Of a DNA stretch of 4,155 nucleotides, positions 32-4,155 are shown piece by piece. The DNA lies in the IMG/VR virus record IMGVR_UViG_2565956624_000015; one strand, 5' to 3'. This DNA is from a virus (Duplodnaviria; Heunggongvirae; Uroviricota; Caudoviricetes). The notes beneath the pieces were generated by a model that saw nothing but the letters and a program-made list of their open reading frames with translations, had not been told where the DNA came from and did not search any database. Position 1 is the first letter of the stretch; every line of letters begins with the position of its first letter. The translations under genes and the position numbers were made by a program.

Positions 32-51
32 GTTTACGCCGCATCCGGCAA
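32..51 (-). repeat. REP-like (repetitive extragenic palindromic) remnant downstream of ybhC
   Basis: Minus-strand reading TTGCCGGATGCGGCGTAAAC matches the conserved half of E. coli REP units. Only one half-palindrome is present, so this is a partial copy. Confidence 0.4.
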
Positions 52-65
52 ATAGTTAATAGCTC

Positions 66-1349
66 TTACTTCTTCGCCTCTGCAACCACTTTGCTACCCA
101 CGCCGCGGTTATTGTATTCCCACATGCGGTTGTAGTTAGTGTCATTCAGATTGCGTTGTATTTCGTCGTTATCATCAACGCTGCCGGTGTTACCCGCAAA
201 CGGACGATTAGAGATCACCGCATCAGCCCAGGGTTTGGCTGTGTTAAAACCTTCGTTGATGGCGCTATCACGGATCACCACCTGACCGTTGGTATTGGCA
301 TCAACATCCAGCGAGCGACCCAGTTGCGCCACGCCATCACCGGAAGCATTGAAACGGCTGTTTACGGCGAGGAAACCGTAATAGATGTTAGACAGCGTAG
401 CCGGTGCAAACACATACGCTTCTTGCTGAGTACGTGAGTTCACCACGCGGAATTCGGTGTTATCGAACACCACTGCGCCGCGACCAGAAACGATATCCAC
501 ATCCCCTTCAATGTAACTGTTGGTCACCAGAGTACGCGGCTGACGGTTGGTTTCCAGACGGTTTTGCACACCACTGTTGGTGACAAAGAAGGTATTCTGA
601 CGACCGAGAATGTTGACGTTATTGATCTGCACTTTGTCACCATCAGTACGCAGTGCCACCGCCGGATGGTTACCCGCATCTACGCTATCGCCCAGCGTGT
701 TTTCGATGGTCAGATTTTGCAGTTGCAGGCCATTGTTTTGTGACCAGAAGACCGCAGAGCAGAGAACACCGATACTGTCGCTGCGTTTGCTCTGGCAGCT
801 ATCGTACATATACCACGCTGGTTTACCTGGCATATATTTGCCGCGCGGGTTGACGTCGTGACGCCAGTCGGCAGGGCTCATGCCCCCATCAAGGGAAAGC
901 CCAATCTTCACATCAATCGGTTTTTCACCTGTACCGTACAGAGTAATTCCACCCGGAGCGGCAGGGACATACACCGTTCCCTGATACTCACCAGGCATCA
1001 CGGCAATATACTGGCGCTTGTTGGTGCGCTTGATAATTGCCGCATCTACCGCCGCCTGAATCGTGGTATGCGTTACACCTTGAGTACCCGCCGGGCCGAC
1101 AACAAAGTCAGGTTGCGCAGGCAGGGTAATCGGGGAAGGATTCCACGCTGCCGCACCTGGTGTCAGGGATGCAAAATAGTGTTGAGCATCGAAATTCTGC
1201 GCTTCTTTTGCCGACAGAATCGGGCGAGAAGAGGTACCAGGCGCGGTTTGATCAGAAGGACGTTGATCGGGCGGTGTTGAGCTACAGGCGGTCAGCGTCA
1301 CGCCAAAAGCCAATGCCAGCGCCAGACGGGAAACTGAAAATGTGTTCAC
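66..1349 (-). CDS. ybhC: Outer-membrane lipoprotein YbhC (pectin-methylesterase-like esterase family), the host gene flanking att-lambda on the gal side
   Basis: 427-aa ORF from the track. N-terminus MNTFSVSRLALALAFGVTLTAC is a lipoprotein signal peptide with lipobox L-T-A-C. GTG start at 1347-1349 with GGAG 5 nt upstream on the minus strand. Length, sequence and position next to attB match what I recall for E. coli YbhC. Confidence 0.85.
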   Translation of the reverse strand: MNTFSVSRLALALAFGVTLTACSSTPPDQRPSDQTAPGTSSRPILSAKEAQNFDAQHYFASLTPGAAAWNPSPITLPAQPDFVVGPAGTQGVTHTTIQAAVDAAIIKRTNKRQYIAVMPGEYQGTVYVPAAPGGITLYGTGEKPIDVKIGLSLDGGMSPADWRHDVNPRGKYMPGKPAWYMYDSCQSKRSDSIGVLCSAVFWSQNNGLQLQNLTIENTLGDSVDAGNHPAVALRTDGDKVQINNVNILGRQNTFFVTNSGVQNRLETNRQPRTLVTNSYIEGDVDIVSGRGAVVFDNTEFRVVNSRTQQEAYVFAPATLSNIYYGFLAVNSRFNASGDGVAQLGRSLDVDANTNGQVVIRDSAINEGFNTAKPWADAVISNRPFAGNTGSVDDNDEIQRNLNDTNYNRMWEYNNRGVGSKVVAEAKK

Positions 1350-1380
1350 AGGTTGCTCCGGGCTATGAAATAGAAAAATG

Positions 1381-1487
1381 AATCCGTTGAAGCCTGCTTT
1401 TTTATACTAAGTTGGCATTATAAAAAAGCATTGCTTATCAATTTGTTGCAACGAACAGGTCACTATCAGTCAAAATAAAATCATTAT
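1381..1487. other. attL: Lambda attL (B-O-P'): host arm, 15-bp core 1396-1410, phage P' arm
   Basis: CCGTTGAAGCCTGC (host B arm as in E. coli attB), then core GCTTTTTTATACTAA, then GTTGGCATTATAAAAAAGCATTGCTTATCAATTTGTTGCAACGAACAGGTCACTATCAGTCAAAATAAAATCATTAT, which is the P' arm of lambda attP. The sequence right of the core is phage (GTTGGCATT...), not the host continuation CTTGAGCG. Confidence 0.92.
1435..1487. promoter_or_regulatory. P' arm protein-binding sites: IHF H' site (about 1435-1448) and Int arm-type sites P'1-P'3 (about 1457-1487)
   Basis: TATCAATTTGTTG fits the IHF consensus WATCAAnnnnTTR. AGGTCACTAT, CAGTCAAAAT and AAATCATTAT fit the Int arm-type consensus (C/A)AGTCACTAT. Site boundaries are approximate. 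Confidence 0.65.
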
Positions 1488-2554
1488 TTGATTTCAATTT
1501 TGTCCCACTCCCTGCCTCTGTCATCACGATACTGTGATGCCATGGTGTCCGACTTATGCCCGAGAAGATGTTGAGCAAACTTATCGCTTATCTGCTTCTC
1601 ATAGAGTCTTGCAGACAAACTGCGCAACTCGTGAAAGGTAGGCGGATCCCCTTCGAAGGAAAGACCTGATGCTTTTCGTGCGCGCATAAAATACCTTGAT
1701 ACTGTGCCGGATGAAAGCGGTTCACGACGAGTAGATGCAATTATGGTTTCTCCGCCAAGAATCTCTTTGCATTTATCAAGTGTTTCCTTCATTGATATCC
1801 CGAGAGCATCAACATGCAATGTTGTTGGGATGGCAATTTTTACGCCTGTTTTGCTTTGCTCGACATAAAGATATCCATCTACGATATCAGACCACTTCAT
1901 TTCGCATAAATCACCAACTCGCTGCCCGGTAACAACAGCCAGTTCCATTGCAAGTCTGAGCCAACATGGTGATGATTCTGCTGCTTGATAAATTTTCAGG
2001 TATTCGTCAGCCGTAAGTCTTGATCTCCTTACCTCTGATTTTGCTGCGCGAGTGGCAGCGACAGGGTTTGTTGTTATATGGCCTTCAGCTATTGCCTCTC
2101 GGAATGCATCGCTCAGTGTTGATCTGATTAACTTGGCTGACGCAGCCTTGCCCTCGTCTATGTATCCATTGAGCATTGCCGCAATTTCTTTTGTGGTGAT
2201 GTCTTCAAGTGGAGCATCAGGCAGACCCCTCCTTATTGCTTTAATTTTGCTCATGTAATTTATGAGTGTCTTCTGCTTGATTCCTCTGCTGGCGAGGATT
2301 TTTTCGTAGCGATCAAGCCATGAATGTAACGTAACAGAATTATCACTGTTGATTCTCGCTGTCAGAGGCTTGTGTTTGTGTCCTGAAAATAACTCAATGT
2401 TGGCCTGTATAGCTTCAGTGATTGCTATCCTCCTGTCTCTGCCTAATCCGAACTCTTTACCCGTCCTTGGGTCCCTGTAGCAGTAATATCCATTGTTTCT
2501 TAAATAAAGGTTAGGGGGTAAATCCCGGCGCTCATGACTTCGCCTTCTTCCCAT
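1484..2554 (-). CDS. int: Lambda integrase (tyrosine site-specific recombinase)
   Basis: 356-aa ORF MGRRRSHERRDLPPNLY...HLLGHKSDTMASQYRDDRGREWDKIEIK, recognised as lambda Int (tyrosine-recombinase H-x-x-R...Y catalytic region near the C-terminus). Stop codon lies inside the P' arm, as in lambda. Confidence 0.97.
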   Translation of the reverse strand: MGRRRSHERRDLPPNLYLRNNGYYCYRDPRTGKEFGLGRDRRIAITEAIQANIELFSGHKHKPLTARINSDNSVTLHSWLDRYEKILASRGIKQKTLINYMSKIKAIRRGLPDAPLEDITTKEIAAMLNGYIDEGKAASAKLIRSTLSDAFREAIAEGHITTNPVAATRAAKSEVRRSRLTADEYLKIYQAAESSPCWLRLAMELAVVTGQRVGDLCEMKWSDIVDGYLYVEQSKTGVKIAIPTTLHVDALGISMKETLDKCKEILGGETIIASTRREPLSSGTVSRYFMRARKASGLSFEGDPPTFHELRSLSARLYEKQISDKFAQHLLGHKSDTMASQYRDDRGREWDKIEIK

Positions 2555-2750
2555 TTCTGATCCTCTTCAAAAGGCTACCTGTTACTGGTCGATTTAAGTC
2601 AACCTTTACCGCTGATTCGTGGAACAGATACTCTCTTCCATCCTTAACCGGAGGAGGGAATATCCTGCATTCGCGCACCCATCGACGAACTGTTTCAAGG
2701 CTTCTTGGGCGTCGCTGGCGAGCGTTCCACTCCTGAAGAGTCAAGTACAT
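2532..2750 (-). CDS. xis: Lambda excisionase
   Basis: 72-aa ORF MYLTLQEWNARQRRPRSLETVRRWVRECRIFPPPVKDGREYLFHESAVKVDLNRPVTGSLLKRIRNGKKAKS, recognised as lambda Xis. The 3' end overlaps the int start by 23 nt (2532-2554), as in lambda. Confidence 0.95.
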   Translation of the reverse strand: MYLTLQEWNARQRRPRSLETVRRWVRECRIFPPPVKDGREYLFHESAVKVDLNRPVTGSLLKRIRNGKKAKS

Positions 2751-2776
2751 CGCAAAGTCTCCGCAATTACACGCAA
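2730..2776 (-). promoter_or_regulatory. pI promoter region with cII-binding direct repeats TTGC-N6-TTGC (2763-2776) just upstream of the xis ATG
   Basis: Minus strand reads TTGCGTGTAATTGCGGAGACTTTGCGATGTACTTGAC. TTGCgtgtaaTTGC is the cII recognition motif flanking the -35 of pI. The -10 and transcript start then fall inside xis, so the pI transcript encodes Int without Xis (established lambda biology). I did not assign exact -10 coordinates. Confidence 0.7.
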
Positions 2777-2777
2777 G

Positions 2778-2800
2778 AAAAAACCGCCATCAGGCGGTTT
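2778..2800 (-). terminator. Putative intrinsic terminator between the 55-aa ORF and the pI/xis region
   Basis: Minus strand AAACCGCC-TGAT-GGCGGTTT is an 8-bp stem with a 4-nt loop, followed by TTTCTT. The TGA stop of the 55-aa ORF sits in the loop. Confidence 0.5.
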
Positions 2801-2957
2801 GGTGTTCTTTCAGTTCTTCAATTCGAATATTGGTTACGTCTGCATGTGCTATCTGCGCCCATATCATCCAGTGGTTATAGCAGTCGTTGATGTCCTCGGC
2901 TTCGATAACTCTGTTGAATGGTTCTCCATTCCATTCACCTGTGACTCGGAAGTGCAT
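2790..2957 (-). CDS. Small hypothetical protein, 55 aa (matches my recollection of lambda 'ORF-55' between xis and ea8.5)
   Basis: Hand translation of the minus strand: ATG at 2955-2957, TGA at 2790-2792, giving MHFRVTGEWNGEPFNRVIEAEDINDCYNHWMIWAQIAHADVTNIRIEELKEHQTA. GGAG lies 7 nt upstream of the ATG. Not in the supplied ORF track, probably because it is below the length cutoff. Confidence 0.6.
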   Translation of the reverse strand: MHFRVTGEWNGEPFNRVIEAEDINDCYNHWMIWAQIAHADVTNIRIEELKEHQTA

Positions 2958-3014
2958 TTATCATCTCCATAAAACAAAACCCGCCGTAGCGAGTTCAGAT
3001 AAAAGAAATCCGCA

Positions 3015-3467
3015 TTAAGCGGCGTCGGTGAATTCAAATAAAAAACCGGCTTGCGCCGGCTCTCTCATCTTTCTGTCTACCCATGCTGATATCGATGGCG
3101 GATGCACCTTTTCAATAGCAGCGCGAAGTACAGCTGTACGTGCCAGTTTGTCGGTAATCTCAGGAAATCGCTTCTCTGTCTTCGGTACGTTAACAGCAAC
3201 ATTAGTAGAATCCGCACTGGCGAACGGATACATACCAAGAACTCTCACGTCGAGCATTCGAAGACCATGAATTTTCACTTTCAAATTACGATTGATATAA
3301 ATCTCAGTAAAAACTTCATCCATTCTCTGTTCCCACCATTTAGAGCGTATGTGCCTGTGTGGGCCGCAGCATCCAATCGCCACCCATTCAAATTTTCCAG
3401 AAAGGCGTAAAAGACGTTCAATTGATTCGTCGTATGCCAGACCGGAACCGCTTTTGATTTTAGCCAA
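3015..3467 (-). CDS. Hypothetical protein (ORF B), no family recognised; possibly the out-of-frame C-terminal part of a frameshifted gene, or a shorter gene starting at the internal ATG 3321-3323
   Basis: 150-aa track ORF that begins at a TTG directly after an in-frame TGA. The first ATG in frame is at 3321-3323 (102 aa) with GGTGGG 8 nt upstream. It overlaps ORF A by 187 nt in the -1 frame. Confidence 0.4.
   Translation of the reverse strand: MAKIKSGSGLAYDESIERLLRLSGKFEWVAIGCCGPHRHIRSKWWEQRMDEVFTEIYINRNLKVKIHGLRMLDVRVLGMYPFASADSTNVAVNVPKTEKRFPEITDKLARTAVLRAAIEKVHPPSISAWVDRKMREPAQAGFLFEFTDAA
3036..3059 (-). terminator. Putative intrinsic terminator hairpin embedded in the 3' end of ORF 3015-3467
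   Basis: Minus strand CCGGC-GCAA-GCCGG (5-bp GC stem, 4-nt loop) followed by TTTTTTATTT. It lies within the last ~15 codons (…REPAQAGFLFEFTDAA) of the 150-aa ORF. Confidence 0.45.
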
Positions 3468-3814
3468 TCAGGAACCAACTCAATCTGCTCGTCGTTTTCT
3501 GCCTCTGTCCCTTCGATAACGTCAGGTATAAGAAACCATTCAATTCTGCTGAACCACTTCCCAACAAAGTCGTAGAATTTTGCTCGTCTCTTACTCCAGT
3601 CTACCGGAGTGCCTTTCTTTAATGCTTTCATCCAGTCGCTAAAAGCGCCGTTATCAAGGCGTATATCACAAGGGAACATGGCAATCTTTTTCATCTGCTC
3701 TGGTCTGGCAAATGAAACAAAAGCCCCACTATCACGGTAAAGGGCTTTAATAAGCATATCTGTAGGGGCATGCTCATCACCCCATATTGGGCTGCCGTGA
3801 AAGTGGATGGTCAT
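3281..3814 (-). CDS. Hypothetical protein (ORF A), 177 aa, no family recognised; accessory (moron-like) gene
   Basis: ATG at 3812-3814 with GGGGA 5 nt upstream. N-terminus MTIHFHGSPIWGDEHAPTD; no signal peptide or obvious transmembrane segment. The last ~60 codons overlap ORF B in another frame. Confidence 0.55.
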   Translation of the reverse strand: MTIHFHGSPIWGDEHAPTDMLIKALYRDSGAFVSFARPEQMKKIAMFPCDIRLDNGAFSDWMKALKKGTPVDWSKRRAKFYDFVGKWFSRIEWFLIPDVIEGTEAENDEQIELVPDWLKSKAVPVWHTTNQLNVFYAFLENLNGWRLDAAAHTGTYALNGGNREWMKFLLRFISIVI

Positions 3815-3872
3815 ATTATCCCCATATAAAAGAAATACCCGCGAGTGCGAGGATTGTTATGTAATATTTGGT

Positions 3873-3997
3873 TTAATCATCTATATGTTTTGTACAGAGA
3901 GGGCAAGTATCGTTTCCACCGTACTCGTGATAATAATTTTGCACGGTATCAGTCATTTCTCGCACATTGCAGAATGGGGATTTGTCTTCATTAGACT
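3873..3997 (-). pseudogene. ea8.5: 3' remnant of lambda ea8.5, truncated by IS1 insertion
   Basis: Minus-strand frame ending at TAA 3873-3875 encodes ...SNEDKSPFCNVREMTDTVQNYYHEYGGNDTCPLCTKHIDD, which matches the C-terminal ~40 residues of lambda Ea8.5 as I recall it. The match stops exactly where IS1-like sequence begins (3998). No start codon is in frame, and the frame hits TGA at 4086-4088 inside IS1. Confidence 0.65.
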
Positions 3998-4155
3998 GGT
4001 AATGGTGCCAACTTACTGATTTAGTGTATGATGGTGTTTTTGAGGTGCTCCCGTGGCTTCCATCTCCATCAGTTGTCCCTCCTGCTCAGCTACTGAAGGC
4101 GTGGTGCGTAACGGTAAAAGTACTGCCGGACATCAGCGCTATCTCTGCTCTCACT
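3998..4155 (+). mobile_element. IS1 insertion sequence, left end (left inverted repeat about 3998-4020); element continues beyond the window
   Basis: GGTAATGGTGCCAACTTACTGATTTAGTGTATGATGGTGTTTTTGAGGTGCTCC... closely matches the IS1 left terminal repeat and leader as I recall them (IS1A: GGTGATGCTGCCAACTTACTGATTTAGTGTATGATGGTGTTTTTGAGGTGCTCCAGTGGCTTC...). Several substitutions indicate a divergent IS1 isoform. Confidence 0.85.
4053..4155 (+). CDS. insA: IS1 InsA (transposition regulator / N-terminal part of the InsAB' transposase), 5' partial
   Basis: GTG at 4053, then [33 protein letters not shown], which matches the InsA N-terminus ([37 protein letters not shown] as I recall it), including the CxxC zinc-finger motif. 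Confidence 0.8.

Follow-up and report, generated by a model that had tools for sequence, protein, structure and literature searches.

The 4,155-nucleotide stretch of DNA analysed here (the window; IMG/VR virus record IMGVR_UViG_2565956624_000015) carries the 3' part of a lambda-type ea8.5 gene, which is replaced part-way along by the left end of an IS1 element. This locus raises the question of whether IS1 transposed into ea8.5 as a simple insertion, or whether the joint has some other origin.

Prophage context

The window covers the left arm of a lambdoid prophage integrated at the E. coli lambda attachment site (attB, ybhC/bio). The left prophage edge is marked by the lambda attachment core GCTTTTTTATACTAA (attL; 1396-1410, plus strand), an exact match with 0 expected by chance, which lies between ybhC and the integrase gene. 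Six genes, all on the minus strand, were identified from the ORF map and by comparison with annotated genomes: ybhC (66-1349), a lambda-type integrase gene, int (1484-2554), the excisionase gene xis (2532-2750), a 55-aa ORF of the lambda orf55 type (2790-2957), an HK106-type gene resembling 'queuine tRNA-ribosyltransferase' (tgt-like; 3015-3814) and the 3' end of ea8.5 (from 3873).

Positions 32-3997 of the window are 100% identical over 3966 bases to E. coli FDAARGOS_1288 and to one second genome. The prophages that match this span are lambda-type, are found at attB beside ybhC and have an intact ea8.5. An exact look-up of the neighbouring 177-aa protein likewise returned only prophages in which ea8.5 is intact.

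The tgt-like gene is a single 266-codon ORF in phage HK106. Compared with HK106, the window has a 1-base deletion near 3432 (CGTCGGTATG to CGTCGTATG); the resulting frameshift divides the gene into two ORFs that overlap (3281-3814 and 3015-3467). Complete genomes whose prophages match at 100% share this frameshift, and their annotation gives two hypothetical proteins for the gene.

The breakpoint in ea8.5

The ea8.5 remnant occupies 3873-3997 on the minus strand, as established by translation and by DNA identity to the uninterrupted allele. The minus-strand frame that closes at a TAA stop (3873-3875) reads …YQSNEDKSPFCNVREMTDTVQNYYHEYGGNDTCPLCTKHIDD. Residues 54-93 of the intact 93-aa Ea8.5 (SNEDKSPFCNVREMTDTVQNYYHEYGGNDTCPLCTKHIDD) are encoded at 3876-3995 (minus strand), and alignment with the intact allele assigns the next two bases, 3996-3997 (minus strand), to the end of the Lys53 codon. 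In pairwise alignment with the uninterrupted allele of FDAARGOS_1288, the match is perfect to 3997 and the sequences are unrelated from 3998. The break therefore separates the first base of the Lys53 codon (AAG, minus strand, 3998-3996) from the second. This codon position reads CAG (Gln) in the window, and 40 of the 93 codons are left.

The sequence beyond the break opens with the left inverted repeat (IRL) of IS1, GGTAATGGTGCCAACTTACTGAT (3998-4020, plus strand); a full 768-bp copy has the identical left end. The first 158 bases of the element (3998-4155, plus strand) are present. The start of insA is a GTG located 55 bases in from the IS1 end; codons 1-34 and one further base (4053-4155, plus strand) lie within the window, and their translation equals InsA of the full copy. 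The visible part includes the CxxC…CxxC zinc-finger cysteines. Features that define the IS1 family are thus found where expected: a terminal repeat of ~23 bp as the outermost sequence of the element, and an insA frame with a zinc-finger N-terminus.

These results agree with the original prediction, made from the letters of the window, that the ea8.5 frame runs cleanly to 3997 and meets the IS1 left end at 3998, and that IS1 lies in plus orientation with insA starting at 4053. The insertion had also been placed in a Lys codon about 40 codons from the C-terminus; the codon is Lys53 and the distance is exactly 40 codons.

The intact ea8.5 product of FDAARGOS_1288 has 93 aa, and its exact sequence is named EA85_LAMBD by public sources. 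It can be aligned over its full length, all 93 residues, with the solved structure 2M7A (E = 2.5e-18). The Ea8.5 fold is a hybrid of homeodomain and zinc finger; the gene is non-essential and its function is unclear (PMC8614690). A complete Ea8.5 is a single domain of ~93 aa, and the window contains a gene remnant, not a working member of the family. The split at residue 53 has probably inactivated ea8.5, since the protein is one small domain with conserved Cys and His residues on both sides of the break.

The remnant frame enters IS1. Its first start codon is a GTG at 3965, which opens a 30-codon ORF. Both the product of this ORF and the 93-aa protein match PF20735 (Lambda_ea8_5). When the 30-aa product was looked up, the sole match was a contig of 249 bases, unrelated to this allele and lambda-like in its arrangement.

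Probable simple insertion of IS1

The most plausible explanation, to which high confidence is attached, is that a common non-K-12 IS1 isoform transposed by simple insertion into ea8.5, a small gene of the exo-xis region, in a lambda-type prophage. The joint has the signature of transposition because the break coincides with the outermost base of the IRL and lies inside an otherwise perfectly conserved ea8.5. The left end of IS1 faces xis and int; insA points away, opposite to ea8.5. IS1 favours AT-rich targets. This agrees with the target stretch, which has 30-36% G+C compared with 47% in the window.

In this process, IS1 transposase would have cut the AT-rich stretch at CATTAGACT with a 9-bp stagger, and repair would then have generated a duplication. 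The predicted left copy of this target-site duplication occupies 3989-3997. The window stops 158 bases into IS1; the right end of the element, the second 9-bp copy and the 5' part of ea8.5 all lie beyond it. Past the IS1 right end, a second CATTAGACT followed by ea8.5 codons 1-55 would be expected, in line with the original prediction that the N-terminal part of the gene lies on the far side of IS1 after a target duplication. Reading the N-terminal piece towards IS1, …AAT G should be followed by GGTAATGACTCCAACTTACTGAT…, the reverse complement of the right inverted repeat (IRR), and the piece should close as …VYKSNG-stop. The C-terminal 40 codons would be left without a usable start, save for the 30-codon GTG ORF.

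This arrangement makes a prediction that can be checked at the protein level. Products of the ea8.5 5' part reading into the IS1 end were predicted for duplications of 5 to 12 bp. Those for 6, 7, 8, 9, 10 and 11 bp were looked up in a collection of 15 billion proteins, together with intact Ea8.5 as a control. The only one on record exactly is the 9-bp product, a 56-aa protein (MSINE…VYKSNG; full sequence MSINELESEQKDWALSMLCRSGVLSPCRHHEGVYVDEGIDIESAYKYSMKVYKSNG). The products for duplications of 6, 7, 8, 10 and 11 bp are absent from this collection; the intact 93-aa control is present. A 9-bp duplication at CATTAGACT is predicted on this basis, as none of the other five duplication products looked up is in the collection. 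The 56-aa protein is E. coli HFH0597836.1 and is also found in Logan and ENA assemblies; it is encoded on five contigs, the longest being 244 kb. Its presence on record confirms a specific prediction made from a simple insertion that duplicates 9 bp, the canonical length for IS1, and supports such an insertion indirectly.

HFH0597836.1 is evidence of the complementary junction in some genome, which need not be the one that the window comes from. Which end of IS1 adjoins the N-terminal fragment is ambiguous from the protein, since both ends of this isoform start with GGTAATG.

The same protein cluster contains N-terminal fragments of Ea8.5 of 53-55 residues, some of them labelled 'partial'. This is the pattern expected of contigs that stop at such a repeat boundary. 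Salmonella, Listeria and Enterococcus records are the source of some Ea8.5 N-terminal fragments, probably through contamination with lambda DNA. In addition, two 56-aa products ending in …VYRLAP diverge at the same Lys53 codon into a different sequence.

At the DNA level, the search for both junctions covered 5,426 complete E. coli genomes. None of their records spans both sides of the left junction, and none contains a synthetic right junction composed of the IS1 right end, CATTAGACT and the ea8.5 5' part. An exact left-junction pattern and a 21-base right-junction pattern were also scanned against species-representative genomes, JGI metagenomes and IMG/VR, and both returned zero matches. Given its absence from the complete E. 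coli genomes searched, the ea8.5::IS1 junction could be used as a lineage marker.

Alternative origins of the junction

An IS1-mediated rearrangement would also place a real IS1 end at 3997/3998, with a far side that no longer adjoins ea8.5. IS1 could have promoted a deletion or inversion next to itself, or two of its copies could have recombined and thereby removed or moved the rest of the prophage. Partners for such recombination are available: many E. coli carry the isoform in several copies, with a median of 10 IS1 places per genome. Moreover, the window closes within IS1, so that nothing past it is visible, and neither junction occurs in any complete genome, which leaves no reference for the full arrangement. 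However, the complementary junction is present in E. coli assemblies with the exact 9-bp offset, on contigs as long as the 244-kb one. Had a deletion or inversion accompanied the insertion, no complementary 9-bp junction would be left, and nothing points to a later rearrangement in the source strain. Rearrangement is accordingly considered unlikely.

The ends of the window bear on a different explanation, in which assembly carried a contig end by mistake into a collapsed IS1 repeat and ea8.5 is really whole. Positions 1-31 are unlike the reference flank; they are the last 31 bases of IS1397 (IS3 family; plus strand), and the identical junction occurs in five complete genomes. IS1397 is inserted into a REP palindrome downstream of ybhC, in its loop region, and the duplication is GTTT. 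Of these five genomes, SCU-482 was inspected in detail: its IS1397 transposase gene stops 2 bases ahead of the same junction, and it carries a different prophage. None of the five can be the genome that the window comes from, since the ea8.5::IS1 junction is absent from the complete genomes searched. The fact that the window is bounded by 31 bases of IS1397 and 158 bases of IS1 suggests that all 4155 bases are one whole short-read contig, broken at two repeats, which would account for the sequence having no extension in its own source.

Ends that lie inside repeats (IS1397 at 1-31, IS1 at 3998-4155) are typical of short-read contigs, and the ends of such contigs are their least reliable part. 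A mis-join would not, however, be expected precisely at the terminal base of the inverted repeat. The phage-side sequence is flawless to its last base, and the product of the matching opposite junction is found in independent assemblies. An assembly artefact is thus very improbable. Simple insertion of IS1 remains the preferred reading, and the appropriate annotation of the ea8.5 remnant is a pseudogene that IS1 interrupts, with the contig break attributed to repeats.

Identity of the IS1 copy

Compared with IS1A of K-12, the 158 bases have 14 mismatches (91.1% identity); compared with IS1F of K-12 they have 13 (about 92%). The IRL differs from that of IS1A at two positions, 4 and 8, which bears out the altered terminal repeat noted in the original prediction. 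The visible InsA is identical to that of IS1A at 32 of 34 residues. The two changes are V4I and D15E, the latter having been noticed from the letters of the window as E instead of D at residue 15.

Positions 3998-4155 match IS1 copies on E. coli chromosomes and plasmids at 158/158 bases. These include elements annotated as 'IS1 family transposase' (158/158, E = 2e-76). Among complete E. coli records, the best match is at least 99% in 936. The proposal that the copy represents a divergent isoform thus holds relative to IS1A (14/158 mismatches) and fails overall, the visible sequence being identical at 158/158 bases to a very common E. coli IS1. On the evidence of these bases, the copy is a non-IS1A but widespread and already sequenced E. 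coli isoform.

The reference for this isoform was a full 768-bp copy in E. coli strain 4/4 (L005:1501-2268) whose left end is identical. It splits a LysR-family gene and is flanked by a duplication of 8 bp. An A6C frameshift site, at which a -1 shift leads into the insB' frame in IS1 elements, is found at position 307, and a programmed frameshift is annotated. In the copy in the window, this site and the right repeat would lie past the last base. Both ends of the element open with GGTAATG, and the IRL at 3998-4020 matches its right repeat at 20 of 23 positions. The full copy is 93.2% identical to IS1A and 95.4% to IS1F.

It is hardly credible that the copy represents a new and divergent isoform with biological interest: 14 of 158 bases differ from K-12 IS1A and 13 of 158 from IS1F, but the same bases occur at 100% on chromosomes and plasmids of many strains, with 936 records at 99% or above, and the full copy falls inside the known spread of IS1 isoforms (93.2% and 95.4%).

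Significance and related insertions

Lambda transcripts antiterminated by N pass the polarity signals of IS elements. In the window prophage, IS1 separates the leftward early promoter from xis/int. The capacity for excision is probably not lost, and little effect of the insertion is expected; expression of xis and int is probably kept because N-antiterminated transcripts would read through IS polarity. No phenotype can be predicted from the loss of ea8.5 itself, since Ea8.5 is non-essential and its precise function is unclear.

The …VYKSNG product, the fragments ending at residues 53, 54 and 55 and the …VYRLAP products cluster at the same place, which raises the speculative idea that the AT-rich stretch around ea8.5 codons 53-56 is a recurrent hot spot for breakage or insertion in lambda-type prophages; by its position ahead of xis/int, the IS element might also help to lock the prophage in. 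Both suggestions are doubtful.

IS1 insertions in accessory prophage genes are routine steps of prophage decay and have little meaning beyond annotation. The presence of IS1 in ea8.5 is a real but ordinary event of an already-known kind, within known biology.

Classical lambda mutants carrying IS1 are known. The lambda-like Escherichia phage PhiR11_1_star (PV340548.1, from ECOR13) shows an IS1 event of the same kind among the same genes: positions 1-1100 of its record open with IS1 insB, and directly after it comes a shortened integrase gene, with xis and ea8.5 next to it. This phage was considered as a carrier of the same allele and rejected, as the gene that its IS1 abuts, where the record begins, is the shortened integrase gene and not ea8.5. 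The target in PhiR11_1_star is int and ea8.5 is intact; in the window prophage the target is ea8.5.

The IS1 copy itself resembles K-12 IS1A and IS1F in having a 23-bp terminal inverted repeat, opening with GGT(A/G)ATG, and the same offset of the insA GTG. Compared with lambda ea8.5 (PF20735; homologue structures 2M7A and 2M7B), residues 54-93 are unchanged in the window; the gene is whole in lambda, whereas IS1 splits it in the window prophage. Lambda also lacks the HK106-type tgt-like gene, which the window prophage has between ea8.5 and orf55/xis.
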